IMG/VR virus record: IMGVR_UViG_2526164690_000054
DNA: 24,401 bases
Direction: 5' to 3' (one strand)
Source of the DNA: a virus
Taxonomy: Duplodnaviria > Heunggongvirae > Uroviricota > Caudoviricetes
The notes beneath the pieces are model-generated. The model searched no databases. It was not told where the DNA came from and worked only from the letters and a program-made list of their open reading frames with translations. The position numbers were made by a program, and so were the translations under genes. Positions 2,830 to 24,401 of this stretch are shown piece after piece. Position 1 is the stretch's first letter. The number at the start of each line of letters is the position of its first letter.

Positions 2830-2830
2830 C

Positions 2831-3211: not shown

Positions 3212-3218
3212 TGATGAG

Positions 3219-6321: not shown

Positions 6322-6542
6322 GCTGCACCTCCGAGATGCTTCATGTTTTTTCCGGAGCGAAAGGCTATAAGCGGCATACTGACGCGGTAATTACGGCCAA
6401 GCGGTTCACAAATCACCTTCTGACATTCACGGTCAACCAGGCTAACACGTAGAACATGCCCTGCAGGCGTGGTGTACCACTGACCGGGGCGAGGACAACG
6501 GAAAGTCTGATTGGTAAATCGTTTGAAAATATTCCGGATCAT
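6318..6542 (-). CDS. hypothetical small basic Cys-containing protein
   Basis: 74 aa; ATGA overlaps with both the upstream stop and the downstream start, so it sits in a coupled operon chain. Confidence 0.5.
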   Translation of the reverse strand: MIRNIFKRFTNQTFRCPRPGQWYTTPAGHVLRVSLVDRECQKVICEPLGRNYRVSMPLIAFRSGKNMKHLGGAA

Positions 6543-7702: not shown

Positions 7703-8262
7703 GCGTTAGTTTCTCCACAGACACAAAACGCCACGACGCCCGGAGCTGCACACTCGCGGGCGTCACTCTTTTCTGGAGCGCAAAAGATTTTGTAGACCAG
7801 TGCTGCATGCTCCTGGAGCTTCGAAATTGACAGATACAACTCATCATTAATTGCTGTCTGCTCGTGTGGCTCCACGACCCCATCTTCGATTGCCGAACGA
7901 ATCTGCTTTGAGTAATTCCCGATCTGTTCGATGACTTCCAGCAGGCGCTGGTTTATATCGGCGTTCTCTACTTCCTCAATTTCAGGAAGCGATACGAACA
8001 CCCCACCAGCAGACTGTGCGACAGCATCCGCAATGTAGTGAGTGCCAGCCGCGCGCTGTAAAACCATTGCCCATCCCAGCGGGAAAATCTGATCGCCATC
8101 GGCACGAAGGCGGTTAAATAATGCGTTCTCTGTTACATCCAGCCAGTCAGCTGCTTCAGCGTAACCACCCGGCAACGCTGCGATAGTTTTTCTGACAGCT
8201 TTCACGTACCACTCAGGCTGTTTTTCTACTTTCCAGTGATACTTACCCACGGTTAGCCTCAT
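7699..8262 (-). CDS. phage regulatory CII-like protein (CP76/YdaT-type)
   Basis: 187 aa, second gene after the Cro-like gene; architecture and motifs resemble the phage regulatory CII family as recalled; inference only. Confidence 0.5.
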   Translation of the reverse strand: MRLTVGKYHWKVEKQPEWYVKAVRKTIAALPGGYAEAADWLDVTENALFNRLRADGDQIFPLGWAMVLQRAAGTHYIADAVAQSAGGVFVSLPEIEEVENADINQRLLEVIEQIGNYSKQIRSAIEDGVVEPHEQTAINDELYLSISKLQEHAALVYKIFCAPEKSDARECAAPGVVAFCVCGETNA

Positions 8263-8293
8263 CGTTCTGTGGTTAAAAATTGAAGGTGTTCTG

Positions 8294-8494
8294 TTAATCT
8301 TTCGGATAGATATCCGGTCTTAAGTCAGATTTCGTAATTGCACCTGACGTGCATTGCTCAAGTTTTTTAGCCAGCACAAAACTGGCTTTTTTATAACCAT
8401 TGAAAACCAGCCGTAAGTAGCCTGGTGTTGAGCCAACTTTTCCGGCCAACTCGCCCTGCTGTTCTTTGGTTAAAGAGTCCCAATACGCTTTCAT
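8294..8494 (-). CDS. Cro-like HTH transcriptional regulator (YdaS/Cro family)
   Basis: Small HTH protein divergent from CI. The start at ATG 8494 is preceded by GGAGG (8505-8509 on plus); the track frame extends to 8518. Confidence 0.65.
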   Translation of the reverse strand: MKAYWDSLTKEQQGELAGKVGSTPGYLRLVFNGYKKASFVLAKKLEQCTSGAITKSDLRPDIYPKD

Positions 8495-8584
8495 ACAATA
8501 TGTACCTCCAATATACATATTACATGATTAATATGAACCTTCAAGATACTTGTACCTTATCGGTACAAAGGTTTTAATTTCTTT
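8495..8584. promoter_or_regulatory. divergent immunity-region promoter/operator
   Basis: 90-bp gap between divergent cro-like and cI genes containing the palindrome TTGTACC-ttatc-GGTACAA (8550-8568) and an extra TGTACC half-site at 8501-8506. Confidence 0.5.
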
Positions 8585-9259
8585 ATGAAAACAGTCCATG
8601 ACATCCGGCGGTCTAACGCCAGAAAACTGAGAGATGGTGTTGGCGGGAATTCTTCCTTTGCCACCATGATTGATCGCGAGCCAACCCAGACCAGCAGGTT
8701 TATGGGAGATGGTGCTACTAAAAATATCGGTGACAGCATGGCACGGCACATCGAAAAATGTTTCGACCTGCCTGTCGGATGGCTTGATCAAGAACACCAG
8801 ACCACGAACATCACAAAAAAACCTGATGTTTCAATCACTAACAAACAAATAACGTTAGTCCCTGTCATATCATGGGTACAGGCCGGAGCATGGAAAGAAG
8901 TTGGCTATTCTGAGGTTGATTTGAGCACAGCAGAAACTTATCCCTGCCCTGTACCCTGTGGCGAAATGACTTATATCTTGCGGGTGATTGGTGATTCAAT
9001 GATTGATGAGTACCGCCCGGGAGACATGATTTTTGTTGATCCCGAAGTCCCTGCCTGCCACGGTGACGACGTTATTGCATTGATGCACGATACAGGCGAA
9101 ACCACCTTCAAGCGATTGATAGAAGATGGAACACAGCGTTATCTCAAAGCATTAAACCCAAACTGGCCTGAGCCTTACATTAAGATTAACGGTAATTGCT
9201 CTATAATTGGTACAGTAATTTTCTCAGGAAAACCAAGAAGATACAAAATAAAGGCCTAA
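8585..9259 (+). CDS. CI-like prophage repressor (HTH plus S24 LexA-like peptidase domain)
   Basis: C-terminal half (VISWVQAGAW...VIGDSMIDEYRPGDMIFVDPE...TFKRLIEDGTQRYLKALNPNWP...IIGTVI) is collinear with the lambda CI cleavage domain, including the Ser (GDSM) region and a Lys. Confidence 0.85.
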   Translation: MKTVHDIRRSNARKLRDGVGGNSSFATMIDREPTQTSRFMGDGATKNIGDSMARHIEKCFDLPVGWLDQEHQTTNITKKPDVSITNKQITLVPVISWVQAGAWKEVGYSEVDLSTAETYPCPVPCGEMTYILRVIGDSMIDEYRPGDMIFVDPEVPACHGDDVIALMHDTGETTFKRLIEDGTQRYLKALNPNWPEPYIKINGNCSIIGTVIFSGKPRRYKIKA

Positions 9260-9270
9260 TCAATATTTAT

Positions 9271-9294
9271 AACCTGCTTCGGCAGGTTTTTTTA
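9271..9294 (+). terminator. rho-independent terminator after cI
   Basis: aacctgc-ttcg-gcaggtt hairpin (7-bp stem, 4-nt loop) followed by a 7-T run. Confidence 0.6.
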
Positions 9295-9297
9295 TAC

Positions 9298-9325
9298 TTG
9301 ACAATGTACCCTTGAGATACATAAT
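9298..9325 (+). promoter_or_regulatory. sigma70-like promoter (PL analogue)
   Basis: TTGACA (9298-9303), 16-bp spacer, CATAAT (9320-9325); directly after the cI terminator and facing the early-left operon. Confidence 0.4.
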
Positions 9326-9742
9326 GTATCTAAAAGAAACATGCCGCAGGCAAGATTAAACAAAATTTGGTTGTAACACGGCGTATGGCACATGCGTCGT
9401 TAGCGGTCTGGGGACGTTAAAGGGGACAATCCACTCCTTGCTCGGGCAAAAAAACCAGGTAGCCGGAATGTGCAAGTCAATGATGATGCTGATAAGACGC
9501 CTAACCAGCGCGGCGATCCGGTTTGACGCCTGGGAAGAGACCAGGGTGCAACGATGAGGGCATTTATGGAACCGCGACAAAGTGTGGTGCCGTAACTTGC
9601 TAAGTGCTCTCAGCGTTGTGGTAATCCGCGAAATGGCGCGGCGGTAAGTATGGCGGGGTTACTCTTTCCCCGTTGAGGACACCGGATTGTCAGGTTGACC
9701 ATACGCCTGAGTGACAACCCCACCACAACAGCCACTGCTTTG

Positions 9743-9875
9743 GCGGTACCAGTTTGTACACTTGCTTCCGGCTGGTACCGCTCTTTTTACAAAACAGAGA
9801 AGAGCATCACCGGACGACGGGCTCATAACCCAATCCAGCCGGGCGGCTGCCACCGCAGGTGTTCTTCTCTGTTTT
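9743..9875 (+). promoter_or_regulatory. structured leader element (terminator-like hairpin plus long inverted repeat)
   Basis: 10-bp inverted repeat gcggtaccag/ctggtaccgc (9743-9752 / 9772-9781) followed by CTCTTTTTAC; then a 14-bp inverted repeat aaaacagagaagag (9791-9804) / ttcttctctgtttt (9862-9875) enclosing a GC-rich 57-nt loop; no convincing ORF across 9330-9925. Confidence 0.3.
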
Positions 9876-9925
9876 GTGGAGAAACCAACCGACCTTGCAG
9901 GGTCGATATGATGAGGAGCAGCAAA

Positions 9926-10288
9926 ATGGCTAGCGAACGCAGTACTGATGTGCAGGCATTTATCGGGGAGCTGGACGGCGGCGTATTTGAAACCAAAATC
10001 GGCGCAGTTCTCAGTGAAGTCGCTTCCGGTGTGATGAACACGAAAACCAAAGGTAAGGTCTCGCTCAACCTGGAAATCGAACCGTTTGATGAGAACCGTG
10101 TGAAAATCAAACACAAACTCTCATATGTTCGCCCGACTAACCGCGGGAAAATTTCCGAAGAAGACACCACCGAAACGCCGATGTATGTCAATCGCGGTGG
10201 TCGACTGACTATTCTGCAGGAAGACCAGGGACAATTACTGACTCTTGCCGGTGAACCTGACGGAAAACTCCGCGCAGCAGGTCATTAA
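9926..10288 (+). CDS. hypothetical prophage protein (first gene of early-left operon)
   Basis: ATG 9926 preceded by GAGGAG (9913-9918); 120 aa; the longer track frame from 9695 has no RBS and runs through the structured leader. Confidence 0.55.
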   Translation: MASERSTDVQAFIGELDGGVFETKIGAVLSEVASGVMNTKTKGKVSLNLEIEPFDENRVKIKHKLSYVRPTNRGKISEEDTTETPMYVNRGGRLTILQEDQGQLLTLAGEPDGKLRAAGH

Positions 10289-10353
10289 TATCGTTCTTAA
10301 TTAACTGATTATTTATCTCATCACTGAATATCTTTATATAGTGAGGACTTATT

Positions 10354-11178
10354 ATGTCTCAGAACTTAGACGCAACCGCAATTAATCAAATCCATGCCCT
10401 TATTTCTGCTCAGGGTGTTAATGAAATTATCAGTAATATTGGTGCCGATGCTGTGGCATTGCCTGAGAATTTCCGCATTCATGATCTGGAAAAATTTAAT
10501 TTAAATCGCTTCCGTTTCCGTGGTGCGCTTTCCACTGCCAGCATCGATGACTTTACCCGTTATTCTAAAGATCTTGCAGATGAAGGCACCCGCTGCTTTA
10601 TCGATGCCGATAATATGCGAGCCGTCAGTGTGCTTAACCTGGGTACTATTGATGAACCAGGTCACGCAGATAACACCGCCACCCTCAAACTGAAAAAGAC
10701 AGCACCGTTTTCTGCTCTGTTGTCTGTTAATGGCGAGCGTAACTCCCAGAAGTCACTGGCAGAATGGATTGAAGACTGGGCCGACTACCTTGTGGGCTTT
10801 GATGCTAATGGTGACACCATTCAGGCAACCAAAGCGGCTGCGGCAGTCCGTAAAATCACAATTGAAGCAAACCAGACCGCTGATTTTGAAGACAATGACT
10901 TCAGCGGCAAACGCTCCCTGATGGAGTCTGTCGAAGCGAAGACCAAAGACATTATGCCAGTGGCATTTGAATTTAAATGCGTTCCGTTTGAAGGCCTGAA
11001 AGAACGTCCGTTTAAATTACGCCTCAGCATTATCACTGGCGATCGTCCTGTACTGGTTCTGCGCATTATTCAGCTGGAAGCGATGCAGGAAGAAATGGCT
11101 AACGAATTTCGTGATCTGCTTGTTGAGAAATTCAAAGACAGCAAAGTAGAAACCTTTATTGGTACTTTCACCGCCTGA
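10354..11178 (+). CDS. DUF2303-like prophage protein (YfdQ-like)
   Basis: 274 aa; size, position and sequence are reminiscent of the CPS-53 prophage YfdQ family; recollection only. Confidence 0.65.
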
Positions 11179-11190
11179 TTTCATTACTGC

Positions 11191-11212
11191 AAATGCCCCT
11201 GCGGGGGCATTT
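11191..11212 (+). terminator. possible hairpin terminator
   Basis: aaatgcccc-tgcg-ggggcattt: 9-bp stem, 4-nt loop, weak T tail. Confidence 0.3.
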
Positions 11213-11306
11213 ATGGAAACGTAATTAACTCAATAATCACCGGATGGTGAGAGCTTCCTTTTAGCAGAATTCAGCGCGGTGCAGCGCATATAAAGTGGAG
11301 AACGAA

Positions 11307-11843
11307 ATGTCATTTATTAAAACTTTTTCCGGGAAGCATTTTTATTATGACAAGATAAATAAAGACGACATCGTGATTAACGATATCGCAGTTTCCCTTT
11401 CAAATATCTGTCGCTTTGCAGGACATCTTTCACACTTCTACAGTGTCGCCCAGCATGCGGTGCTTTGCAGCCAGCTGGTGCCGCAGGAATTTGCTTTTGA
11501 AGCGTTAATGCATGATGCAACAGAAGCATATTGCCAGGACATCCCCGCGCCACTGAAACGACTTCTTCCTGACTATAAACGGATGGAAGAAAAAATAGAC
11601 GCCGTAATCCGTGAGAAATACGGGTTACCTCCTGTTATGAGCACGCCAGTGAAATATGCCGATCTCATCATGCTGGCAACCGAACGCCGCGATCTCGGAC
11701 TTGATGATGGCTCTTTCTGGCCTGTATTGGAAGGTATCCCGGCAACAGAGATGTTCAAAGTGATTCCACTGGCACCGGGCCATGCCTACGGGATGTTTAT
11801 GGAACGCTTCAACGAGTTATCGGAATTACGCAAATGTGCATAA
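11307..11843 (+). CDS. HD-domain phosphohydrolase (YfdR-like 5'-deoxynucleotidase family)
   Basis: HD-domain metal-binding residues (H..H...HD in AQHAV / MHDATEAY); ATG 11307 preceded by GGAG; 178 aa. Confidence 0.75.
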   Translation: MSFIKTFSGKHFYYDKINKDDIVINDIAVSLSNICRFAGHLSHFYSVAQHAVLCSQLVPQEFAFEALMHDATEAYCQDIPAPLKRLLPDYKRMEEKIDAVIREKYGLPPVMSTPVKYADLIMLATERRDLGLDDGSFWPVLEGIPATEMFKVIPLAPGHAYGMFMERFNELSELRKCA

Positions 11844-12712
11844 CTCATGTAGTTAGTTTTTCTGGCGGGAGAACATCTGCATATCTTGTTCACCTGATGG
11901 AAGAACAAAGAAAGGCTGGCAATAACGTCTGCTACATCTTTATGGATACCGGTTGCGAACATCCGCTGACATACCGCTTTATTCGGGAGGTTTTGAAGTT
12001 CTGGGGCATACCGCTAACTGTGTTGCAGGTCGATATAAATCCAGAGCTTGGGCAGCCAAATGGTTATACGGAATGGGAACCAAAGGATATTCAGACGCGA
12101 ATGCCGGTGCTTAAACCGTTTATGGACATGGTTAAAAAGTACGGTACGCCATACATCGGCGGCGCATTCTGTACTGACAGGCTAAAACTCACCCCTTTCA
12201 CGAAATATTGCGATGACCATTTTGGGCGAGGGAATTACATCACATGGCTCGGTATTCGTGCGGACGAACCCCGTAGGCTGAAACCGAAACCTGGCGTCCG
12301 GTATCTTGCCGAGCTGTCAGATTTTGATAAGTCGGATGTTATCCGGTGGTGGCAAAAACAACCTTTTGATTTGCAAATCCCGGAGCACCTCGGGAACTGT
12401 GTTTTTTGCATCAAAAAGTCAACGCAAAAGCTGGGGCTTGCATGTAAAGACGAACCTGGTCTGATGCGGGTTTTTAATGAACTGGTTACAGGCAAACACG
12501 TCAGGGATGGTCATCGCAGAACAGGTAAAGACGTTATGTACCGTGGTCACCTGACGCTTGACGGGATTGCCAGAATGTATGCCGACAGCGACTACAGAAG
12601 TTTGTATCAGGCGATGGTGCTGGCCAAGCGGTTTGATACTGGTTCGTGTTCCGAATCATGTGAAATCTGGGGTGACCAATTGGAGTTGAAATTCGAAGAG
12701 GTCGTGGCATGA
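11834..12712 (+). CDS. PAPS-reductase-family PP-loop protein
   Basis: N-terminal PP-loop SFSGGRTS (SGGxDS-type ATP pyrophosphatase motif); start overlaps the upstream stop. Confidence 0.75.
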   Translation: MCITHVVSFSGGRTSAYLVHLMEEQRKAGNNVCYIFMDTGCEHPLTYRFIREVLKFWGIPLTVLQVDINPELGQPNGYTEWEPKDIQTRMPVLKPFMDMVKKYGTPYIGGAFCTDRLKLTPFTKYCDDHFGRGNYITWLGIRADEPRRLKPKPGVRYLAELSDFDKSDVIRWWQKQPFDLQIPEHLGNCVFCIKKSTQKLGLACKDEPGLMRVFNELVTGKHVRDGHRRTGKDVMYRGHLTLDGIARMYADSDYRSLYQAMVLAKRFDTGSCSESCEIWGDQLELKFEEVVA

Positions 12713-12912
12713 CAATCGTAAAAACCCATACCGGTACCGTGATCACCAAAGATGGCCCGCAGGTAAAAAAATTGCACCAAACAGAGCGGATGTGGGTCGT
12801 TGGCAAAAACGAGTTTTACCACAAAGAAACTGGACGCCGCCATTTTGCAGAAAATACGCGCCGCCGACTGCTGTTAGACACCATCAAGCCTATCGAGGTG
12901 AAGCATGTTTAA
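12709..12912 (+). CDS. hypothetical small phage protein
   Basis: 67 aa; ATGA overlap with the upstream stop. Confidence 0.5.
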   Translation: MTIVKTHTGTVITKDGPQVKKLHQTERMWVVGKNEFYHKETGRRHFAENTRRRLLLDTIKPIEVKHV

Positions 12913-13144
12913 ACAGAACGAAAAAGCTATCGCTCAAATTGCTGATTATATCCCGCGTGCGTGCCGGGGTATGCAGTTGCAGGAAGCCAAAGCGCGCCTG
13001 GAGAAAAAAATTGCGCTCTATATCGATGACGGCTGTGATGCTGCCGTTCTTAACGCGGCGTTCGCGCCAGCTCTTAACAGCCATACGCGGGAGGCTTTTT
13101 TTTCGCGCATCGCAGCGCAGATCCGTAAAGGAGGCAACCAGTGA
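12905..13144 (+). CDS. hypothetical small phage protein
   Basis: 79 aa; overlaps the upstream ORF by 8 nt within the operon. Confidence 0.5.
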   Translation: MFKQNEKAIAQIADYIPRACRGMQLQEAKARLEKKIALYIDDGCDAAVLNAAFAPALNSHTREAFFSRIAAQIRKGGNQ

Positions 13145-13470
13145 GCAAGATTGACTATCAGGCACTGCGTGAGGCGGCAGAAGCAATAAAAGTCGTGGCA
13201 ACGCCGCAAAAATTGCTTGCGTTTCGTATGAAAGTCACACCGCAGGTTGTGCTGGTGCTGCTGGATGAACTAGAAGCTAAAAACAAACGCATTACAGAAC
13301 TGGAAGCGAGGGAAGTTCAATTACCGACTCGCTACGACCTTCGATATGGGCACCCAATAAATGCTGATAAGCGACATGTCATGATACCTAAAGAAAATGG
13401 CAGCTGGCTTTGCCTGATTGACTTAGAACACGCACTACGCGTCGCTGGCATTCGCATCAAAGGAGAGTGA
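13141..13470 (+). CDS. Ead/Ea22-like protein
   Basis: 109 aa; N-terminus MSKIDYQALREAAEAI resembles Ead/Ea22-like prophage proteins as recalled; GTG start overlapping the upstream stop. Confidence 0.45.
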   Translation: MSKIDYQALREAAEAIKVVATPQKLLAFRMKVTPQVVLVLLDELEAKNKRITELEAREVQLPTRYDLRYGHPINADKRHVMIPKENGSWLCLIDLEHALRVAGIRIKGE

Positions 13471-13471
13471 G

Positions 13472-14335
13472 ATGACCACTTTCACCGATAAGAAACTGAT
13501 TAAAGAAATCAAAGAGCGCATAAGCAGCCTGGACGTGCGAGACAATATTGAGCGTCGGGCTTATGAAATTGCATTGACTGCATTGACAGCGGAGCCATTT
13601 GGCATCATCGATACTTCGGGGATTGCGCTCATTAACCATGGTAGTGATGCGTATATTTGGCCCGTCAATTCGATGGAGCCGGGAGATGTACCACTATATA
13701 TCGGCCTGCCACGAATTGCACCGGCATCAATACCAGAGGCCATGACAGAGGAAAAAGCGTACTCAAATGTACAAACGAGCTGGCAGGATGCGAAATATTA
13801 CGCTACTGGCTGGAATGCCTGCCGCGCCGCCATGCTTCAGGCCAGAAACTTTCGGGAAAATAAGAATTCGTCAACCAATAATTTTCGGGAAATCGCGGAA
13901 ACGTCAACCAACTATCCGGTAATTCCTAGTGAGGTGTTGTCCGCAATCCAGAAGGTTGCCAAGATTCGTGCCGATTTCGATGATTTTGACGGTGACAGGC
14001 GAGGTATCGGTGATTATCTGGATGAGGCTGAGCAAGAGCTTATCGTTACCATTAACAAATATGCCAGTCAGTTGGCAGCAGAACCTATAGCGCCTAATGA
14101 CGTTCGAGAGCAGACAGCCATTCCGCAAGTTCCGGTAACTCCGGATGGTTGGATAAGCTGTAGTGAGCTAATGCCGAACGACGCACAGTGGTGCGTAGTG
14201 AACACAGAATACGGGTATTACGTGCAATGCTGGTCTGAAGGTCAAGGGTGGCTTGGTGATGATATCAGCATCCCTGAATGCGATGTAACCCACTGGATGC
14301 CTCTACCAGAACCGCCGCAGGAGGTGAGTCAATGA
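13472..14335 (+). CDS. DUF551-domain prophage protein
   Basis: 287 aa; C-terminal WISCSELMPND...THWMPLPEPP is the characteristic DUF551 signature. Confidence 0.6.
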   Translation: MTTFTDKKLIKEIKERISSLDVRDNIERRAYEIALTALTAEPFGIIDTSGIALINHGSDAYIWPVNSMEPGDVPLYIGLPRIAPASIPEAMTEEKAYSNVQTSWQDAKYYATGWNACRAAMLQARNFRENKNSSTNNFREIAETSTNYPVIPSEVLSAIQKVAKIRADFDDFDGDRRGIGDYLDEAEQELIVTINKYASQLAAEPIAPNDVREQTAIPQVPVTPDGWISCSELMPNDAQWCVVNTEYGYYVQCWSEGQGWLGDDISIPECDVTHWMPLPEPPQEVSQ

Positions 14336-14415
14336 GTTGGCCTGAAGCATTTGCAATTGTAGGTGTTGCAATATCGATTGCGCTGATTATTTTTTCGATT
14401 TGCCGCTGGGGATAA
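14332..14415 (+). CDS. small hydrophobic peptide (27 aa, single predicted TM helix)
   Basis: Not in the ORF track (<60 aa). ATG overlaps the upstream stop (ATGA) and is preceded by AGGAGG at 14318-14323; sequence MSWPEAFAIVGVAISIALIIFSICRWG. Confidence 0.4.
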   Translation: MSWPEAFAIVGVAISIALIIFSICRWG

Positions 14416-14419
14416 TCTC

Positions 14420-14662
14420 ATGTTCGCACTTATTCAACGCGGGCAAATATACACGGACAGGGCCGGATACCCTGTGGTGATTACTCGCTGTACGGACCGC
14501 TCTGTGTTCTTTCGACGTATGGACGGACACTCCGGGCGGGTATGCATTGGTGAGTTCAACTGCCTGTTCGAACATATTGACCACCAGCAGTATTGCAAAA
14601 TCCTGGCGGACACTGAGCAGGAAAAGCACCTGAAAAAATTGCGCGCAATGCAACGGAGGTGA
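14420..14662 (+). CDS. hypothetical small phage protein
   Basis: 80-aa ORF, coding-like composition, inside the operon. Confidence 0.5.
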   Translation: MFALIQRGQIYTDRAGYPVVITRCTDRSVFFRRMDGHSGRVCIGEFNCLFEHIDHQQYCKILADTEQEKHLKKLRAMQRR

Positions 14663-14665
14663 TAC

Positions 14666-14812
14666 ATGCATACGGTTTTTGAGTTATGGGTTCGCAAGAC
14701 ATTCGGCAATCGCTATGACCTGACGCGAGATGTTGACGGTTTCTACTGTCGTGAAATTGTGAAACGAATGTTTGAAGTGTGGTGTCACTGTCGTGGGCTG
14801 AATGTTGTGTGA
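14666..14812 (+). CDS. hypothetical small Cys-containing protein (48 aa)
   Basis: Not in the ORF track; ATG 14666 preceded by ACGGAGG (14654-14659) with 6-nt spacing. Confidence 0.4.
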   Translation: MHTVFELWVRKTFGNRYDLTRDVDGFYCREIVKRMFEVWCHCRGLNVV

Positions 14813-14820
14813 GGTGAACT

Positions 14821-15030
14821 GTGGGGCTGGATTGCGTACCTATATCAACCTACTGCCGCAACGCGGGAGAAACGGTTGATGCCGTTAACAAACGGATACA
14901 AAGAGGAATATGGAAAGAAGGGGTACATGTATTAAAAGTCGACGGGGTTAAAGAGCGTTGGGTCGACTTAATAGAGGTTTCAAAATGGGCAAGAAAGAAC
15001 AAGGATTATTATCTCTGCCAAGAGGAGTAA
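14821..15030 (+). CDS. putative excisionase (Xis-like)
   Basis: 69-aa ORF immediately upstream of and overlapping the integrase gene; rough similarity to lambda Xis in the winged-helix region. Confidence 0.5.
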   Translation: MGLDCVPISTYCRNAGETVDAVNKRIQRGIWKEGVHVLKVDGVKERWVDLIEVSKWARKNKDYYLCQEE

Positions 15031-16160
15031 CTATTCGTAAGCATAAAACTGCTTCAACACTAGTTATCACTTTCACATATAAAGGGGTTCTTTGCAGGGA
15101 GCCCCTATCTCGGCTTGAGGCAAATACACGTGGTATAAAATATGCTGAGCGCCTGCTAGGGGAGATACAAAATCAGATCGCCAGCGGAACGTTTGAATAT
15201 GCGAAATATTTCCCCAATTCCAAAAAACTGGAGTTATTCGGTGTAGTAAAGAAAACCAAAAATATTAAGTCCTATCTTGATGAATACCTGAAAATTTGCA
15301 TAAACCGTAATCTGTCGCCGTCAACCATTGGCGGTTACGAAAAATGTCTATCAGCACTATCAGAACTACATAAACTACATGTAACAGAATTGACGCCTGC
15401 GATACTAAAAAATTGGATAGCCAGCCGAAAAACTAAGCTGAAAACAATCAGGAATAACCTGTCATTTCTGCGCAGCGCCATTGATGAAGCTGTTACGGAT
15501 GGCCTGCTGACCATTAACCCGGTAACCCTCGTCAGCGCCAGCCGGTACCACGTGATCGACAGTAGCCCGAGCGCCGACGATTACGAGGTTGACCCGTTCA
15601 CGCCAGCGGAGACCCTTGCCATTTACCAGAGCTGCAGGTACAGGGAATGGGAAAACCTGTTCCGCTTTGCTTTCAATACAGGTCTGCGGAGCTCAGAACT
15701 GTGCGCGCTGCGCTGGGCTGATCTCGACACCATCGCGAACACAGCCCACGTTCAGGCGGCCAGTGTCGTAGGGGTACTTAAAGGCACCAAGACAAAAGCC
15801 GGTACCCGTAAGGTGGAGCTGAACAGTGAGGCGCTGGCAGCCCTGCAGGCGCAGAAGCAATACACCTTTATGAAAAGTGAGTTCATATTCAGCGATCCGA
15901 AAACGGGAGAACCCTGGACGAACGCCGACGCTATCCGTAAAAAAGCATGGGTGCCGACCCTGAAAAAAGCTGGTGTGCGCTACCGTAACCCGTACCAGAC
16001 GCGCCACACATTCGCCACCAGACACATTAGCCAGGGTGTAAACCTTTTCTGGCTTGCCGGGCAGATGGGGCATAAGGGGCCGGAAATGCTGTTCCGCAAT
16101 TACGGTAAATACCTGGCTGAATACGATGGTAAAACGTCTATAAATGTTGTGTCAAGCTGA
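14985..16160 (+). CDS. int: tyrosine recombinase / phage integrase (lambda Int family)
   Basis: C-terminal catalytic signature (RHTFATRH...H...Y in YQTRHTFATRHISQGV...GHKG...FRNYGKY); ATG 14985 preceded by AGAGG; track frame starts at TTG 14958. Confidence 0.85.
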   Translation: MGKKEQGLLSLPRGVTIRKHKTASTLVITFTYKGVLCREPLSRLEANTRGIKYAERLLGEIQNQIASGTFEYAKYFPNSKKLELFGVVKKTKNIKSYLDEYLKICINRNLSPSTIGGYEKCLSALSELHKLHVTELTPAILKNWIASRKTKLKTIRNNLSFLRSAIDEAVTDGLLTINPVTLVSASRYHVIDSSPSADDYEVDPFTPAETLAIYQSCRYREWENLFRFAFNTGLRSSELCALRWADLDTIANTAHVQAASVVGVLKGTKTKAGTRKVELNSEALAALQAQKQYTFMKSEFIFSDPKTGEPWTNADAIRKKAWVPTLKKAGVRYRNPYQTRHTFATRHISQGVNLFWLAGQMGHKGPEMLFRNYGKYLAEYDGKTSINVVSS

Positions 16161-16601
16161 GTACATAGGCTTAAGGCTGATGAAAATTAAGAATGAGTCT
16201 ACCATTGCTTTTTGTGAAATGAGCTATCATCTATGTTATTGATAGTTTCCATAGTTCATTTAGGTAATTGTAAATTTAATTAAAATCAATAACTTACATC
16301 ATAGCAAGAAATGGAGTGCAAATATATTTCTTGACTTCACGTAAGTTACTTTATTGCAATAAATTTTCACTAGGACAGTGCAAGGACACTGATAGTACTT
16401 GATGAGTCCCAGTACAAACTGTTATCCTGTGCTCCACAAATTCTAAAACTTTTATGTTTTTTTACTTTTCAAGAGCTTAACGTAGGTATCGGCGAAGCAC
16501 CACAACTGGAGTGAACACTATGAAAAAGACACTGACCGTAGGTTTCGGTGAAGGTTAACTACAACCTAAAATTTTAAAACAAACCTCCATTAGCACAATA
16601 A

Positions 16602-16627
16602 GGCCTCCCATGCGGAGGTCTTTTGTT
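16602..16627 (+). terminator. hairpin terminator in int-distal intergenic region
   Basis: ggcctcc-catgc-ggaggtc (7-bp stem with one G-U pair) followed by TTTTGTT; the track ATG at 16610 lies inside the loop. Confidence 0.4.
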
Positions 16628-17398
16628 ATAGGAATCAATAAGATGGCGAGAACATTAGTCAACGTCAGCGCTACAATTTTTGCTCTAATGATGATTGTCA
16701 GAGCACTTTTTACTTATATCTACCCTGGAAAACTACCATTTAGCATCGCCATCATTGATTGGCTGATCGTCATTGCTGGTTCTGGTGCAGCAATATCTTC
16801 TATCTTCTGCTTCATCAAAAAACGCTATCCAGACACTGCAGAATTTCTTCCTATGTTCAGCACTGTTTGTTATGTGATTATCCTTATTGGATATGCAATT
16901 TTAAGGTACACACCGGCCTATCAAACATCGCTTTCGATCATGGTTACAGGAATGCTCGTTGGAATGGGATGGTGGATACAATGCATAACGTCCGCTGCTA
17001 ACACGCGCAGGTCCCACACGCTGAACATGATCATTAACACCCGAACAAGCCCGGAGTACCAAAAACAGCTTCGGAACAGCACCAAATTCTATCGGGGCAT
17101 GCGTTATGTACCACAAGAACTATCAGAGTGGCGCTGCAACCCAGACAAAGAAGAATACAAGAATATGAAGGTCCCCGATGAGTACAGGGATGCCATCAAT
17201 GGCCTTTTATATATTCTTAATTATTTCGAGTTTCTTGCGCAGGGTATCAAGTTCAAGGATTTGGATGACGAATTACTGAGGGAGTGCTTCTCCAGCTTCT
17301 TACGCGGGATAGAACGTCGTGGCTTCCACATGATCTTAGAGTCTCAGAAACAGGACCCTGCAGCCTTTGAAGGAATAATCTACCTTTCAAAAAAATGG

Positions 17399-17407
17399 AA
17401 CGGAACA
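17399..17407. repeat. IS10 target-site duplication (left copy, aacggaaca)
   Basis: 9-bp direct repeat identical to 18737-18745, directly abutting the IS10 end. Confidence 0.8.
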
Positions 17408-18736
17408 CTGATGAATCCCCTAATGATTTTGGTAAAAATCATTAAGTTAAGGTGGATACACATCTTGTCATATGATCAAATGGTTTCGCGAAAAATCAAT
17501 AATCAGACAACAAGATGTGCGAACTCGATATTTTACACGACTCTCTTTACCAATTCTGCCCCGAATTACACTTAAAACGACTCAACAGCTTAACGTTGGC
17601 TTGCCACGCATTACTTGACTGTAAAACTCTCACTCTTACCGAACTTGGCCGTAACCTGCCAACCAAAGCGAGAACAAAACATAACATCAAACGAATCGAC
17701 CGATTGTTAGGTAATCGTCACCTCCACAAAGAGCGACTCGCTGTATACCGTTGGCATGCTAGCTTTATCTGTTCGGGCAATACGATGCCCATTGTACTTG
17801 TTGACTGGTCTGATATTCGTGAGCAAAAACGACTTATGGTATTGCGAGCTTCAGTCGCACTACACGGTCGTTCTGTTACTCTTTATGAGAAAGCGTTCCC
17901 GCTTTCAGAGCAATGTTCAAAGAAAGCTCATGACCAATTTCTAGCCGACCTTGCGAGCATTCTACCGAGTAACACCACACCGCTCATTGTCAGTGATGCT
18001 GGCTTTAAAGTGCCATGGTATAAATCCGTTGAGAAGCTGGGTTGGTACTGGTTAAGTCGAGTAAGAGGAAAAGTACAATATGCAGACCTAGGAGCGGAAA
18101 ACTGGAAACCTATCAGCAACTTACATGATATGTCATCTAGTCACTCAAAGACTTTAGGCTATAAGAGGCTGACTAAAAGCAATCCAATCTCATGCCAAAT
18201 TCTATTGTATAAATCTCGCTCTAAAGGCCGAAAAAATCAGCGCTCGACACGGACTCATTGTCACCACCCGTCACCTAAAATCTACTCAGCGTCGGCAAAG
18301 GAGCCATGGGTTCTAGCAACTAACTTACCTGTTGAAATTCGAACACCCAAACAACTTGTTAATATCTATTCGAAGCGAATGCAGATTGAAGAAACCTTCC
18401 GAGACTTGAAAAGTCCTGCCTACGGACTAGGCCTACGCCATAGCCGAACGAGCAGCTCAGAGCGTTTTGATATCATGCTGCTAATCGCCCTGATGCTTCA
18501 ACTAACATGTTGGCTTGCGGGCGTTCATGCTCAGAAACAAGGTTGGGACAAGCACTTCCAGGCTAACACAGTCAGAAATCGAAACGTACTCTCAACAGTT
18601 CGCTTAGGCATGGAAGTTTTGCGGCATTCTGGCTACACAATAACAAGGGAAGACTTACTCGTGGCTGCAACCCTACTAGCTCAAAATTTATTCACACATG
18701 GTTACGCTTTGGGGAAATTATGAGGGGATCTCTCAG
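17408..18736 (+). mobile_element. IS10 insertion sequence (complete, 1329 bp)
   Basis: Outside end CTGATGAATCCCCTAATGATTTTGGTAAAAATCATTAAG at 17408; inside end ...GGGGATCTCTCAG ending at 18736; encodes the 402-aa IS10 transposase; flanked by a 9-bp duplication. Confidence 0.9.
17515..18723 (+). CDS. IS10 transposase (IS4 family)
   Basis: 402-aa ORF within the IS10 ends; sequence recognised as the IS10/Tn10 transposase. Confidence 0.9.
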   Translation: MCELDILHDSLYQFCPELHLKRLNSLTLACHALLDCKTLTLTELGRNLPTKARTKHNIKRIDRLLGNRHLHKERLAVYRWHASFICSGNTMPIVLVDWSDIREQKRLMVLRASVALHGRSVTLYEKAFPLSEQCSKKAHDQFLADLASILPSNTTPLIVSDAGFKVPWYKSVEKLGWYWLSRVRGKVQYADLGAENWKPISNLHDMSSSHSKTLGYKRLTKSNPISCQILLYKSRSKGRKNQRSTRTHCHHPSPKIYSASAKEPWVLATNLPVEIRTPKQLVNIYSKRMQIEETFRDLKSPAYGLGLRHSRTSSSERFDIMLLIALMLQLTCWLAGVHAQKQGWDKHFQANTVRNRNVLSTVRLGMEVLRHSGYTITREDLLVAATLLAQNLFTHGYALGKL

Positions 18737-18745
18737 AACGGAACA
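18737..18745. repeat. IS10 target-site duplication (right copy, aacggaaca)
   Basis: 9-bp direct repeat identical to 17399-17407. Confidence 0.8.
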
Positions 18746-18998
18746 TCGTTTGTTGAAACCCACCGTTCCAACCCTAATACGGTTGAGCTCGGGGTTCCAT
18801 ATCCTTCAAACGATATGGTTGAAAAAATGGTTCAAGGTCAGCCGTTAATAGATAGCGACGCAGGGCCGGAACTTCAAGTGGCCACTTAATCTCGTTGTAT
18901 GGACCAAGAGAGGACCAGAAAATGCACTCAAAATGCACTTGAGGCATTTTTAAACAGAGAATGCATTGTTATTCAATGGGTTAAGCATTGCTCGGGCA

Positions 18999-19023
18999 CG
19001 GGTTCAACTCCCGCCAGCTCCAC
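18999..19023 (+). other. fragment resembling the 3' end of tmRNA (probable att core remnant)
   Basis: cgggttcaactcccgccagctccac matches the T-arm/acceptor 3' end of E. coli tmRNA as recalled; upstream sequence does not continue as tmRNA and no CCA follows. Confidence 0.5.
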
Positions 19024-19058
19024 TTTTTAGTTGTTTGAAGTTCAATGAAGTCTACTAA

Positions 19059-19090
19059 GCCCACACAGCACAAGCTCTGCGGGCTTTTTT
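19059..19090 (+). terminator. possible rho-independent terminator
   Basis: Imperfect hairpin gcccacacagc-acaa-gctctgcgggc (9 of 11 pairs) followed by T6. Confidence 0.4.
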
Positions 19091-19187
19091 ACGTCTATTG
19101 TCGTCCAGTGAGAATTGCTGAGAACTACGAGTTATGGCACCCTGAATGGGACCCACTAAGAAGGGTCCAAAAACCGAGGGTCCCAAA

Positions 19188-20408
19188 ATGGCAAAAATCG
19201 CTAAGAAGCTCACTGACACTGAAATCAAAAGCACCAAGCCAGCCGATAAAGAAATCAACTTGTTTGACGGTGATGGTCTGATTCTACGAATCGCTCCTTT
19301 GGCGAAAGGAGGCAAGAAAAATTGGTATTTCAGGTATGCAGTACCCGTGAGCAAGAAAAGAACCAAAATGAGCCTTGGGACATATCCTCACCTTACCCTT
19401 GCAAGAGCCAGAGCCTTACGTGATGAATATCTCTCCTTTCTGGCAAATGGTGTTGATCCCCAAATCCATAACAACGATAAGGCGAAGGCATTAAAGAGTG
19501 CTACTGAGCACACTCTCCAAGCCGTAGCGCGGAAATGGTTAGATGAGAAGGTAAAGACATCAGGTATCTCACAAGACCATGCAGCAGACATCTGGCGCAG
19601 CTTAGAGAGAAATGTCTTTCCCGGTCTGGGTAATGTCCCTATCCGACCTAAGCTCTTAAAACAACACCTTGATCCTATTGAGCAACGAGGCGTATTGGAA
19701 ACTCTACGCCGTATCATTTCACGTCTGAATGAAATCTTCCGGTGGGCAGCTACTGAAGAACTTATTGAGTTCAACCCGGCTGACAACCTTGGTCAAAGAT
19801 TCAGTAAACCAAAAAAGCAAAATATGCCTGCCCTTCCCCCAAGCGAATTGCCAAGGTTTATGGAATCTTTGACGAATGCGTCAATCCGGTTGGAAACACG
19901 TATGCTAATTGAATGGCAATTGTTGACATGGGTTCGTCCGGGTGAAGCCGTTCGCGCAAGGTGGTCTGATATTGATACAACCAACAGCATTTGGAACATT
20001 CCTGCTGATTTCATGAAAATGAAAAAGCTTCACAAAGTTCCTTTGAGTAAAGAAGCTTTGCGCATCCTTGAATTAATGAAATCAATAAGTGGGCATAGAG
20101 AATGGGTTTTCCCCAGCATAAAAGCGCCTCTTAATCATATGCATGAACAAACAGCCAACGCAGCTATCATCCGAATGGGGTTCGGAGGCGAGCTTGTAGC
20201 TCACGGTATGCGTTCTATTGCACGAACAGCGGCAGAGGAGTCTGGTAAATTCAGAGCTGAAGTTCTTGAGGCAGCGCTTGCCCACTCGAAAAAAGATGAA
20301 ATTATCGCAGCATACAATCGTGCAGAATATCTGATAGAGCGACAGAGTTTGATGCAATGGTGGAGTGATTACGTTCAAGCTCAAAGATCAAATGCTCTGG
20401 TAGCCTAA
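19188..20408 (+). CDS. P4-type tyrosine integrase (IntA-like)
   Basis: N-terminus AKKLTDTEIKSTKPADKEINLFDGDGLILRI is typical of P4-family integrases; C-terminal catalytic region (HGMRSIARTAA...AHSK...AYNRAEY); ATG 19188 preceded by GAGGG; adjacent to the tmRNA-like att fragment. Confidence 0.85.
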   Translation: MAKIAKKLTDTEIKSTKPADKEINLFDGDGLILRIAPLAKGGKKNWYFRYAVPVSKKRTKMSLGTYPHLTLARARALRDEYLSFLANGVDPQIHNNDKAKALKSATEHTLQAVARKWLDEKVKTSGISQDHAADIWRSLERNVFPGLGNVPIRPKLLKQHLDPIEQRGVLETLRRIISRLNEIFRWAATEELIEFNPADNLGQRFSKPKKQNMPALPPSELPRFMESLTNASIRLETRMLIEWQLLTWVRPGEAVRARWSDIDTTNSIWNIPADFMKMKKLHKVPLSKEALRILELMKSISGHREWVFPSIKAPLNHMHEQTANAAIIRMGFGGELVAHGMRSIARTAAEESGKFRAEVLEAALAHSKKDEIIAAYNRAEYLIERQSLMQWWSDYVQAQRSNALVA

Positions 20409-20932
20409 GTATCAGAATAGCTAATATAATCCTGAAGGTAAAGAAAATGGAAACCCTATTCAAAGTTTTTGAAAAATTTAGTTCCAGACCACTTTTTTTA
20501 TTTTTTTCGGACTCTCACTTTGTGAATTTTTTCAGAAACAATCTGTTCTGATGAATCCATCAGCAGATAACATCGCGAAATTATTCGCAGCCATGATATT
20601 AGTTGTTTTTTTACTTGGGGATTTGAATGGCTAATCTTCAAGTTCAATGTAAACCTTGAACCTCATGATCAAGGCGATATTGGACCAACAATTGGAACGG
20701 CTACTTTAGCTGTATACTTAGTTTATGCCTTTCACTTTCTCAGTGAAAATCCTGAAGCATTAAATTTAAAGTTATTAACTAACTCTGGCTTTATATACAG
20801 CACAACTCTATTATTATTCTCATTAGAATGCATGAAGCTTAGAAGACTTAAACAAAAATAAACAACATCATTGTGATGATAAATATAAAATAGGCATGGC
20901 GAAAAAAAATCACCACGCCTAAAATATAATAA

Positions 20933-22699
20933 TTATGGTAGCATCATTGATACATAATCCACACCAATCCTTGAGCTATACTGAGACGCTATAGCCTGAT
21001 ATCTTTCTGCATAACCAGTTCTCAGTTGAGATTTAAGTTTGAGTCGGACAGGAACATTTTGCACGTTGCCATCCATATTACTTAAAAACACGGCAGAAAT
21101 AATATTTTTTTCTTCGCCATCAACTGTTGTTCCATGATTCAACACCACCATATAATCAACAACAGGAAGCGTTTTATCCCCTTCGAAAATAGAGAGATAT
21201 TTTCTTTGATTTTTATGCATTACATATATATATTTCGAATGTTCAGCAAATGGCAATGCTTTACTCTGACTGGCGTTAAAAAGCTCCAGAACTTTAATGA
21301 GCCTGTGCGGACTTAATCTTACATGGTGAGGGTCGTTACCCTGAGTAGGAACCAAATCACATGCCGCAGATACACATAAATACCATTTGTTCGACTCTGT
21401 ATCAAAGAAAATAGTGCCAGTAGAAATATGACCATCTTCAAAATTCTTTGAAGACAAATTCATATTTAAAGCATGATACATTTCGTGATAAGTATCATTA
21501 TTTGATGGCAGATCCATTTTTGAAGAGCAATATTGGAGCAATGCAGCAACTCCGCTGTTAGCGTATTCATTTGAATAGCTATCAAAAACACTTTTGATAA
21601 ATTCATCCAGCGTATTATTATTTTTAAGTCTTTGATAAAGCTCTTCTGATAAATTACCAAATACAAAGTCAATATTTCTACATCTAATATCAGGCGAGTC
21701 TGATTTTAATATCTCATTTAACCACGCAGCTTGACCGTAATGATCGTTAGCCAAATGATTTACAAAAGATAAAGCCTCAGCTTCGATTGCATTCTGAATT
21801 TCAGATTTTATTAACTGATAATAAGATGGTTTCCATTCAATGAGAGAATCATTGAGAGTTTGCCAAATCCTATCTCCATCGTTTTCATGATCATCTTGAA
21901 CCTTATGAAATAGGGAGACAAAGATATTACCACATTGAATCCATTTTACTCCGCTTTCATCACCCCGAATGACATTGCCAGATGTGTTGCTAGAAATAAT
22001 TGCATTTCTAGACACAGCATATTCTGCAATCATTTTTGCAATGAAGTTTTTATCCTTTTGATCCTCCAACACAGCATCATCATGTATTAATCTTTTAATT
22101 CTTCTACAAGGCTTACTGTCTTTAATATAGGCTATTATTTCATCTCTTGTGAGAGCTTTATTACCATTATCATTTAAGTTCGGTAATACAACGTCTTCCC
22201 AATAACTTTGGACATCTTCATTATCGTAGTCAATGATCAAGCTGTTGATATCCAGAGCACCTTTGAGAGTCGATGATATCTGCATCCAAACCGTTTCTAA
22301 ATTCTCTCTAGTATATATTACAATCATATTTAAATGATCGGAGTCTTTCAAATCTTGTAATAGTTTAAGTGTTTTATCAGGTGCATTATTATCAAGATGA
22401 TAATCTACAATAATAAGATCTGATTTTCTAATCCGATCCACATCGAAATTAACAGAACCATTGTCAACATCACAAATCATATTTTTAGATTGAAAAAAGC
22501 TCTCAAGAGTAGCGGCTCGTTTAGATGAGTCAATTTTGTTGTAGTCTAAATCAACTTCGTTATTCAACGCCCTGATTGATTCAGAATACGTCAGAAAATC
22601 GTCATCAATCATGACAACGGAACGAATTGCATTTTCGCAGAAAGTTTTCTGGACAAGAGAATTATAATTTGCCACTGTCATATTAGAACTCCACTCCAT
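20933..22699 (-). CDS. receiver-like (CheY-type) N-terminal domain fused to large uncharacterised C-terminal domain
   Basis: 588 aa; N-terminal ~150 aa carries VVMIDDD (acidic pair), DLIIVDYHL (candidate phospho-Asp) and MIVIYT (conserved Thr) with receiver-like spacing; remaining ~430 aa have no recognisable motif; start overlaps the kinase gene by 17 nt. Confidence 0.6.
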   Translation of the reverse strand: MEWSSNMTVANYNSLVQKTFCENAIRSVVMIDDDFLTYSESIRALNNEVDLDYNKIDSSKRAATLESFFQSKNMICDVDNGSVNFDVDRIRKSDLIIVDYHLDNNAPDKTLKLLQDLKDSDHLNMIVIYTRENLETVWMQISSTLKGALDINSLIIDYDNEDVQSYWEDVVLPNLNDNGNKALTRDEIIAYIKDSKPCRRIKRLIHDDAVLEDQKDKNFIAKMIAEYAVSRNAIISSNTSGNVIRGDESGVKWIQCGNIFVSLFHKVQDDHENDGDRIWQTLNDSLIEWKPSYYQLIKSEIQNAIEAEALSFVNHLANDHYGQAAWLNEILKSDSPDIRCRNIDFVFGNLSEELYQRLKNNNTLDEFIKSVFDSYSNEYANSGVAALLQYCSSKMDLPSNNDTYHEMYHALNMNLSSKNFEDGHISTGTIFFDTESNKWYLCVSAACDLVPTQGNDPHHVRLSPHRLIKVLELFNASQSKALPFAEHSKYIYVMHKNQRKYLSIFEGDKTLPVVDYMVVLNHGTTVDGEEKNIISAVFLSNMDGNVQNVPVRLKLKSQLRTGYAERYQAIASQYSSRIGVDYVSMMLP

Positions 22700-24401
22700 T
22701 GAACTGGATCACAAAATTAGCGCCATCTTTTATTAAATAGTTATCGCCTTCATCAGGTTCTGAATACCATATTTTATGATGTGCAACAGCAAGGTTTTCT
22801 CGACATAGATACAGACCTACCCCATGTCCATTTGCTCTTTTGCTATAAAATAGTTCAAATAGTCGCGGGATATCATCGGTATCAATTGCCGGACCAGAAT
22901 TTGCTATGATAACCAAAGAATTCACAAAACCAATCTTTATGAGCCTATTATTTGACAGACTGACCCAATACATTGCATTGTTGATAATATTAGTAAAAAC
23001 AGGATAGATCCTTAATGGTATATCTGTTATTGCGATTTGCTTAAACTCTTCACTAAATTCAATAGTTATTCGTTGCCGTTCGAAACGCTCCCCAAAGAAC
23101 TTCAGGACATAATCCATGATATTTTTTCCAGTTATTCTCTGCCTGGATTGATAACCTGATATTTTCAAAGGTGATAAGAAACGTATTTGTTGAGTAAGCG
23201 ATCTGTGAGCATTTAACGCCAATGAAAAACCAGGGTGTTCTTTTACAGAAGTAGGAAGAGAGTTTAGTCCTCTGGTTACCATAGAATCCATTTCTTCAAG
23301 TTCATGAGATATTATCTCAACACTAATACCTAACTGTGCAAGCGCGTTTAAACTTTTAGCTTTTTCTTCAAAATATGAGCGTTCTTCTTCAGATAATGAG
23401 AATGCTGAATCTAAGTTTATACCTTCAAATAATCTATCGAGACCTTTTATTATTGATTGATATTTGAAAGTTAGGGTATCAACTGACTCAACATATAAAC
23501 TATCGAGCAAATTAAACACATTTTCAATTTGTGAATCATTATCTATTGAATCAACAACTGATATAGTTTTAGCATAATAATCACTTCGATCAACCTTTAT
23601 TTCATCGGCCCATTTTTTTAAAAGAGAATGTATCTTCTCCTCTATCGTGTTATTAAACTTAGTTAGTTTAGAATTAATAATACCTTGATTTTTTTCAAGG
23701 TGATTTTTCGCTGACAATGAAGGCTCAAGTTTATTTAATTCAGAATCAAGTTTATTAATTGCTAACTTCATTTGTAGAATATACGCAGAGAACTCATTAA
23801 ATTTATCTCTGTAGTCTCTATATTTCTCTTCATACATTCCAAGTTTTGGAGGTTTGATAGGCGTTTTAATTTCACTGCGCAACGCATCTAAGTTTGTAAG
23901 ATCACTGTCTATAATTTTAAGATAGTTTAAATCTAACGAACCATCAGTTTTATCAAGCTTAGTTTTCAGCCTTTTAACAGCCTCCAAGGAAGCATCAAGA
24001 ACTGGTGTCTGATTCTTCAAAGCTTCTGAAAAACTTTTTTGTGTTGATTTTCGAGCTTGTTGTTGAGCAGATTTTCTTAACTCTTTTTCACGCTTAACTT
24101 GTTCTAAAAGCTCTTTACGGTCATCAGAACGTGAACCAAAAAATCTATCAGCAAGTTCAGTTAACAAATTAGATATAATAGTTTTCAGTTCTCTTGCAGC
24201 CTGGTTTCTTATGAATCCCTCTCTCCCCGACTTATCTTTCAGCTCTTTATTACTGGATTGAGTAATTCCAATATAACCAAAAATCCTTCTATTAGACCAA
24301 TAATATCGCCCTGCATTCCATGAACGTCTTTCTTCTATCTGGAAGAAATCATTATCTACTCGACCATAAGGTAATACTCTCAAGCTATCCCTAAAAATCA
24401 T
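22683..24401 (-). CDS. histidine-kinase-type protein (HisKA-like H-box plus HATPase_c), 5'-partial at window edge
   Basis: Frame open to the window end; Lys/Glu-rich coiled-coil-like middle; H-box-like GISVEIISHELEEM, N-box NIINNAMYW, G1 IIANSGPAID, G2 GHGVGLYLC in canonical order and spacing. Confidence 0.65.
   Translation of the reverse strand: MIFRDSLRVLPYGRVDNDFFQIEERRSWNAGRYYWSNRRIFGYIGITQSSNKELKDKSGREGFIRNQAARELKTIISNLLTELADRFFGSRSDDRKELLEQVKREKELRKSAQQQARKSTQKSFSEALKNQTPVLDASLEAVKRLKTKLDKTDGSLDLNYLKIIDSDLTNLDALRSEIKTPIKPPKLGMYEEKYRDYRDKFNEFSAYILQMKLAINKLDSELNKLEPSLSAKNHLEKNQGIINSKLTKFNNTIEEKIHSLLKKWADEIKVDRSDYYAKTISVVDSIDNDSQIENVFNLLDSLYVESVDTLTFKYQSIIKGLDRLFEGINLDSAFSLSEEERSYFEEKAKSLNALAQLGISVEIISHELEEMDSMVTRGLNSLPTSVKEHPGFSLALNAHRSLTQQIRFLSPLKISGYQSRQRITGKNIMDYVLKFFGERFERQRITIEFSEEFKQIAITDIPLRIYPVFTNIINNAMYWVSLSNNRLIKIGFVNSLVIIANSGPAIDTDDIPRLFELFYSKRANGHGVGLYLCRENLAVAHHKIWYSEPDEGDNYLIKDGANFVIQFNGVEF

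Follow-up and report, generated by a model that had tools for sequence, protein, structure and literature searches.

What is the 3' end of a transfer-messenger RNA (tmRNA) gene doing between two integrases, in a stretch of phage DNA that holds no tmRNA gene? The question is raised by the Caudoviricetes record IMGVR_UViG_2526164690_000054 of IMG/VR, a 24,401-nt stretch that we analyzed as a whole and call the window, in which a short block at positions 18999-19023 is preceded by the integrase of a lambdoid prophage and followed by a P4-type integrase. The window is DNA of enterohemorrhagic Escherichia coli (EHEC) type, its nearest relatives being O111:H11 strains 88.0502 and 88-19539 (99.7% identity). 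Comparison with related genomes leads us to conclude, with high confidence, that the block is the 3' end of ssrA, the tmRNA gene, displaced and left at the boundary of two elements that used one target at different times. As such it is the right attachment site (attR) of the lambdoid prophage and at once the old ssrA-proximal junction of an island. The original prediction had read it as a junction shared by two integrative elements, and both the empty site and the phage attachment site (attP) described below bear that reading out.

The block (CGGGTTCAACTCCCGCCAGCTCCAC, + strand) repeats without a mismatch the final 25 nt of E. coli ssrA as far as “CCAC”; the annotated gene of E. coli O26:H11 11368 has the same 3' end. 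Contained in these 25 nt are the T-loop, the 3' T-stem and the 3' acceptor strand, followed by the discriminator A and the first C of CCA. A search of the window that tolerated up to 3 mismatches gave this one copy, where chance would give 0. The likeness to ssrA extends weakly for 7 nt 5' of the 25-mer (5/7 identical), and a permissive scan with the Rfam tmRNA model aligned the region as a 5'-truncated match (model positions ~343-374, 22.8 bits, E 1e-7, below gathering). A resemblance to the T-arm and acceptor end of tmRNA, to which the original prediction had pointed, is in this way confirmed, and aligning the block to ssrA, its own suggested check, gave an exact match where no match would have spoken against it. 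ARAGORN detects neither tRNA nor tmRNA genes in the window, and there is no Rfam tmRNA (RF00023) match to it at gathering; RNA-OUT, C4 and isrK are the sole Rfam matches at that threshold, all of them away from the block. With no tmRNA or tRNA gene in the window, the block is therefore a fragment of ssrA. It is no RNA gene and is unable to make tmRNA, and the sole plausible role left to it is that of a core site for prophage excision mediated by integrase (Int) and excisionase (Xis).

18992-19023, + strand: displaced ssrA 3' fragment, exact at 18999-19023; attR core of the lambdoid prophage and former ssrA-proximal island junction

The gene to which such a fragment once belonged is found in related genomes. 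O26:H11 11368 has, in this order and all in direct orientation, smpB, an intact ssrA, a prophage of ~58 kb, the fragment and the island with its P4-type integrase; ssrA occupies positions 6542-6904 (+) of the comparison locus (L004), and the fragment lies ~58 kb downstream on the same strand. The intact tmRNA gene and the second attachment-site copy, which the original prediction had to assume, are thus located outside the window, at the opposite end of this prophage. From left to right, this copy of the prophage consists of effector genes, tail, head, lysis and early genes, int and DUF4760, with type III secretion system effector loci at its far end. It bears the Islander signature, an intact ssrA at one end and a fragment in the same orientation at the other, and to this are added a tyrosine integrase of its own within the interval, a contiguous attP in a free element and, in relatives, an empty attB.

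The empty site is common. A synthetic query of 938 nt, composed of ssrA followed by window positions 19024-19600, matches with 100% identity over its whole length in O111:H11 8D, O26 H19 and others, and strain 503025 too has the island straight after an intact ssrA. Across complete E. coli genomes, the island stands directly behind ssrA in 967 of 5426, each an empty site for the phage, and in the prophage-free relatives what follows ssrA directly is the island trailer rather than unrelated sequence. The comparison with empty-site strains that the original prediction had proposed accordingly turned out in its favor. The occupied arrangement, in which phage end, fragment and island adjoin, was found in 76 genomes by a tighter junction query.

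Further support comes from LMessi, a phage with an Int 92% identical to that of the window's prophage. Its attP is contiguous and has both arms, with the ssrA 3' end as the core; the left arm matches window positions 18890-18998, and the right arm matches the O26 ssrA junction on its phage side. The left breakpoint falls on the base before the 25-mer. That base is A in the window, from the phage, and G in the intact gene, from the host, which is the pattern expected of attR versus attL, and the intact ssrA of lysogens has phage-derived sequence 3' of the core. On either side, the core is flanked by paired repeats. AAATGCAC occurs only twice in the 24.4-kb window, as a pair with 11-bp spacing ~70 bp left of the core, and at the other end of the prophage, in O26, a matching pair with the same spacing is found ~95 bp right of ssrA (L004, positions 6995 and 7006); both pairs are kept in the LMessi attP. 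Judging from their sequence and placement, these repeats are probably arm sites to which Int would bind.

14985-16160, + strand: the lambdoid prophage's tyrosine integrase, of ssrA-specific type, with Arm-DNA-bind_2 and Phage_integrase domains
18920-18966, + strand: putative arm-type Int sites in the P arm of the lambdoid attR, AAATGCAC at 18920 and 18931 and a degenerate AATGCAT at 18960

Because the behavior of tyrosine integrases at tRNA and tmRNA genes is established (PMC4383910), a course of events can be proposed for this locus. A P4/CP4-57-type island would have entered the 3' end of ssrA first, an order that we infer, and would have given the gene its 3' end, trailer and terminator; later, the island would have lost its distal end and become an immobile remnant. 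The lambdoid, effector-carrying prophage would have come next, into the regenerated ssrA, its tyrosine integrase recombining attP with the T-arm and acceptor end of the gene within 25-32 nt of identity. In this step the phage attP would have given ssrA a new, perfect 3' end with CCA, together with phage downstream sequence, and the former 3' end would have been pushed ~58 kb downstream along with the island that follows it.

How far does the element on the right still deserve the name of an integrative element? Its integrase belongs to the P4 family, as the original prediction held: an Arm-DNA-bind_3 domain (PF13356, 2.2e-22), which is the DUF4102-type N-terminal domain, is joined by the central Phage_int_M (PF22022, 1.4e-18) and the tyrosine recombinase catalytic domain Phage_integrase (PF00589, 1.8e-19), and the protein is 48% identical to IntA of CP4-57 in E. 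coli K-12. The catalytic R..HxxR..H..Y residues are kept, with RPGE (250), HGMR (339), LAHS (364) and AAYNR (374) aligning with K-12 IntA. Its start lies at 19188 in RefSeq relatives, as against the first ATG of the open reading frame (ORF) at 19146. NCBIfam model PRK09692 scores 429.6 bits, just under its cut-off of 434, on this copy with its 3-aa deletion; 406 of 409 residues match the copy of strain 8D, which has an extra NEI.

The corresponding change in the DNA is a 9-nt in-frame deletion at 19643/19644 (NEI lost after residue 152) relative to the alleles of 8D and O26 11368, and it is common to several O111/O103-type genomes. Sequencing error was considered for this deletion and for a 3-nt deletion in the fragment, discussed below, and was rejected: both recur in many independent assemblies, and the O26 11368 reference has the 3-nt one. 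Just 5' of the integrase start codon lie three GGG(A/T)CC(C) motifs, the outer two of which are reverse complements and form an inverted pair. GGGTCC occurs three times in the whole window, two of them here (19148-19184), and the equivalent place in K-12 holds another triple repeat, of AGGCCCA type. The triple may represent arm-type Int sites or regulatory sites of the P4-type element.

19148-19184, + strand: three GGG(A/T)CC(C) motifs with 15-nt spacing (19148, 19163, 19178)
19188-20408, + strand: P4/CP4-57-type tyrosine integrase of the remnant island (Pfam, NCBIfam and comparison with K-12 IntA)
20447-20861, + strand: small island ORF, 138 aa in relatives and broken in the window
20933-24401, - strand: island cargo, a Response_reg_2 protein (20933-22699) and a HEF_HK/HATPase_c protein (22683-24401), by Pfam

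The remaining island genes are few. The small ORF is frameshifted by two single-T losses in runs of T8 (~20493-20500 and ~20606-20613); it is intact in all compared relatives, and the losses are probably homopolymer sequencing errors of the source assembly. The cargo DNA has 33-37% GC, in agreement with the AT-rich island predicted to the right of the P4-type integrase. Its two proteins belong to Response_reg_2 (PF19192) and to HEF_HK (PF19191), a pair described as two-component-like, paraMORC-related and linked to restriction-modification loci (PMC8011034). Searches of the cargo against PADLOC v2 gave no significant match and one marginal one (E 0.007), and NCBIfam gave no significant assignment, with generic histidine-kinase matches below cut-off for the kinase-like protein only.

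The island has no recognizable second end. To the right of the window, relatives have an IS3 insertion sequence (IS), a truncated alpha-amylase pseudogene and glaH-lhgO-gabDT, the last being the neighborhood found downstream of ssrA and CP4-57 in K-12; the distal end of the island is IS3 set against the truncated amylase gene. No second ssrA 3' end or direct repeat was found at up to 3 mismatches in the window and 20 kb to its right (loci L001, L003 and L013). Insertion of IS3 alone was rejected as the cause of the missing end: the IS3-free CP-1639 record joins the island straight to the truncated amylase gene, so that the loss is independent of the present IS3, and no att copy was found at the distal end in that record either. 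The island is an immobile, fixed remnant of 5-7 kb, comprising int, the small ORF and the two-component-like gene pair, and since it lacks a partner att site its excision is not expected. The two elements in tandem at one att site that the original prediction described are hence only partly so: both are at ssrA, but only the lambdoid prophage has both att copies, the island being a decayed remnant.

Between the fragment and the P4-type integrase lies what the island had supplied to ssrA. A stem-loop at 19057-19086 followed by T6 at 19087-19092 makes the imperfect terminator hairpin noted in the original prediction a real one, homologous to the ssrA terminator of K-12 and with one stem mismatch, and the trailer that contains it sits directly 3' of the intact ssrA in 8D and 503025.

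19024-19092, + strand: island-supplied ssrA 3' trailer and intrinsic terminator, orphaned from ssrA (fold, terminator scan and comparison)

Related copies occur elsewhere. A Raoultella genome has the same trailer behind an intact tmRNA gene. A scaffold of Photorhabdus heterorhabditis SF41 (scaffold 24; L011, 1329-4014) has a near-identical module of fragment, trailer and P4-type int right after a different integrase, its fragment undeleted and its terminator stem perfect; this module is either a recent transfer or an E. coli-like contaminant contig. The model of IsrM (RF02763, 329 nt), a small RNA of a Salmonella island, aligns at both of its ends to the trailer and terminator (19016-19090). 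A real IsrM gene at this place was rejected, the match scoring 51.5 bits against a gathering threshold of 376 with 253 model positions absent; from the alignment, the island-supplied trailer and terminator seem homologous to the ends of IsrM. A search of genome contigs with the trailer returned 3 loci only, none of them in Salmonella.

Several points weigh against reading the fragment as the boundary of two elements at ssrA. The strict Islander definition of a tandem array calls for an integrase and a fragment per member, and the island has no distal fragment; only the prophage fits that definition. The action of the lambdoid Int on the ssrA site is inferred from sequence. The intact ssrA and the partner att copy lie outside the window, and the link between them and the fragment rests on related genomes. 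Finally, in the closest relatives of all, O111:H11 88.0502 and 88-19539, the prophage borders on dusA at its far end and has a second integrase there, and in the source strain the attL partner may be elsewhere, through an inversion or in a hybrid prophage. In record NZ_CP077567.1 (1289000-1338000; L002, 32320-34543), the genome nearest to the window, a second integrase, of dusA type, is seen at the far end of the prophage, which abuts dusA-pspG-dnaB and not ssrA-smpB. Such a far end suggests a hybrid prophage, a large inversion between ssrA and dusA prophages, or a misassembly.

Could the lambdoid prophage have targeted not ssrA but some site within the P4-type island, or within another prophage, the fragment being the attL of the island only? 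Integration of prophage into prophage is documented in Shiga toxin-producing E. coli (PMC8112680), and the right flank of the fragment is indeed island DNA; however, the empty-site genomes put the insertion exactly within the 3' end of ssrA, the left breakpoint is at the base before the 25-mer with phage sequence 3' of the core in the ssrA of lysogens, and the phage attP itself holds the ssrA 3' end. We consider this explanation very unlikely. Equally hard to sustain is the idea that phage and island form one composite two-integrase element that moves as a unit, with the fragment as an internal relic. Phage and island do adjoin in 76 genomes, and the phage record phi467 was deposited with both parts, yet 967 genomes have the island without the phage, LMessi has attP and Int without the island, and the island, devoid of a distal att site, is fixed beside the amylase-gene remnant and glaH. 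That the block resembles ssrA by chance or as a tRNA would, or is left over from a duplicated ssrA, and has nothing to do with site-specific recombination, has next to no likelihood: its exact match does span 25 nt only and has no second copy in the window, but no such match is expected by chance, the block ends exactly at the phage/host breakpoints, and arm repeats flank it with integrases on both sides. A displaced ssrA 3' end between a younger prophage and an older island is the explanation that we retain.

The prophage side of this boundary is itself interrupted. The original prediction placed the lambdoid prophage and its integrase immediately to the left of the fragment; the integrase at 14985-16160 is there, but a DUF4760 gene disrupted by IS10 stands between the two. 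IS-free strains have an unbroken DUF4760 gene of 302 aa. The IS10 is flanked by a 9-bp target duplication, AACGGAACA, at 17399-17407 and 18737-18745, and contains RNA-OUT (17453-17522, 98.8 bits) and a DDE transposase (17515-18723); most related genomes lack it. Upstream, a candidate Xis has no Pfam or NCBIfam match.

14821-15030, + strand: candidate excisionase (Xis), an ORF overlapping the int start; the same position is annotated 'excisionase' in 2013C-4538
16643-17407, + strand: 5' part of the DUF4760 gene, which is a phage accessory gene lying between int and attP (Pfam DUF4760)
17408-18736, + strand: complete IS10 (ISVsa5), 1329 bp, splitting the DUF4760 gene between int and attR (ends and breakpoint mapped)
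18737-18889, + strand: 3' part of the DUF4760 gene, colinear with comparison locus L003 up to the stop codon

Two further observations concern the left part of the window. In the early region, on the - strand at 7154-7342, a C4 antisense RNA (82 bits) lies beside isrK (59 bits), a pair that prophages of this kind usually carry as their ant/immunity-type RNA module. Positions 1-1500 are very AT-rich (31% GC) and hold two hypothetical genes beside the phage antiterminator Q gene; this stretch resembles accessory cargo of moron type.

Though real, the arrangement is an ordinary one, already known from EHEC O111 and O26; ssrA is an integration site of Stx phages in O111 (PMC2323221; PMC8065619). 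The closest precedent is CP-1639 of O111:H- strain 1639/77 (AJ304858; cited as Creuzburg et al. 2005 in PMC8065619), in which a lambdoid prophage at ssrA is followed by the same island, the amylase-gene remnant and the glaH region. There, the island genes are annotated as intA, two hypothetical genes and a histidine-kinase-like gene under the label 'remnant integrative element'. CP-1639 differs in being a Stx1 prophage with different early genes and a phage-proximal region cut by IS629, and in its island, whose intA is truncated and which has no surviving displaced fragment and no distal IS3. The window's prophage, in contrast, has no stx in the part seen and carries IS10 in its DUF4760 gene.

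CP4-57 of K-12 resembles the island in having a P4-type IntA right after ssrA and in supplying the gene with its 3' end and a homologous terminator. In K-12, too, a short, degenerate ssrA 3' fragment, psaA, is annotated at an element boundary, the attR or far end of CP4-57. Unlike the island, whose integrase is only 48% identical, CP4-57 has other cargo, keeps its distal fragment and can excise. The window lacks a distal island fragment, and its own fragment is island-proximal because a second element inserted. Tandem arrays and degenerate fragments at ssrA are textbook matter, and are reportedly treated in Williams's 'Traffic at the tmRNA gene' of 2003. Islander uses the combination of a tRNA or tmRNA gene and its fragment as a signature, describes tandem arrays and finds the tmRNA gene to be the most enriched target (PMC4383910). 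The window shares with such arrays a regenerated gene and a displaced 3' fragment, the newest arrival nearest to the intact gene and a crossover in the T-arm/3' region, and departs from them in that its distal member has no fragment. Many ssrA elements, with displaced fragments that have small deletions in CCAGCTCCACCA, are listed in Table 1 of PMC10107115, which draws on Williams 2003.

Among phages, the closest relatives named for the window's prophage are LMessi, the PhiR12 phages and other lambdoid phages that integrate at ssrA. LMessi is alike in its 92%-identical integrase and in an attP whose ssrA 3' end is flanked by ATGCAC-type repeats, and unlike in having no DUF4760 gene between int and attP and in the rest of its genome.

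The importance of the locus hardly goes beyond annotation, and it offers a clean worked example of ssrA as an integration hotspot. The fragment puts the right boundary of an effector-carrying EHEC prophage at window position 19023, and the downstream integrase, belonging to a separate, older and immobile island remnant, is not to be counted as part of the prophage. The phi467 record (LN997803.1; L008, 3762-7286) continues through the ssrA fragment and on into the P4-type island, with intA and cargo; its right boundary is too far out.

The point of most interest is a small one, the loss of 3 nt at the end of the fragment. Relative to CCACCAC (window 19018-19028) the fragment is short of 3 nt, such that CCA is not fully encoded: the junction reads CTCCAC-TTTTT in the window as against CTCCACCAC-TTTTT in 503025, LMessi and the attL of O26 (compared with L006, 12356-12370, and L005, 9356-9367). 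Among the best 20 of the 76 lysogen junctions, the undeleted form is found in UTAK-6 only. In ~11 prophage-free strains of O26/O111 type, 8D and H19 among them, the deleted form is the only ssrA, and the loss of encoded CCA hits the sole copy of the gene. The deleted end keeps the acceptor stem, the discriminator and one C, so that exonuclease trimming and the CCA-adding enzyme could plausibly still mature it. Lysogens, by contrast with these strains, obtain from the phage attP a perfect 3' end in which CCA is encoded, along with a new terminator, and tmRNA maturation might therefore improve in them. We put forward as a long shot, and think it rather unlikely, that in EHEC of serogroups O26, O111 and O103 carriage of the prophage improves tmRNA maturation and its loss means a return to an allele dependent on the CCA-adding enzyme. 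If true, this would amount to a mild benefit or an addiction effect of the prophage, analogous to the change in ssrA upon excision of CP4-57 in K-12.

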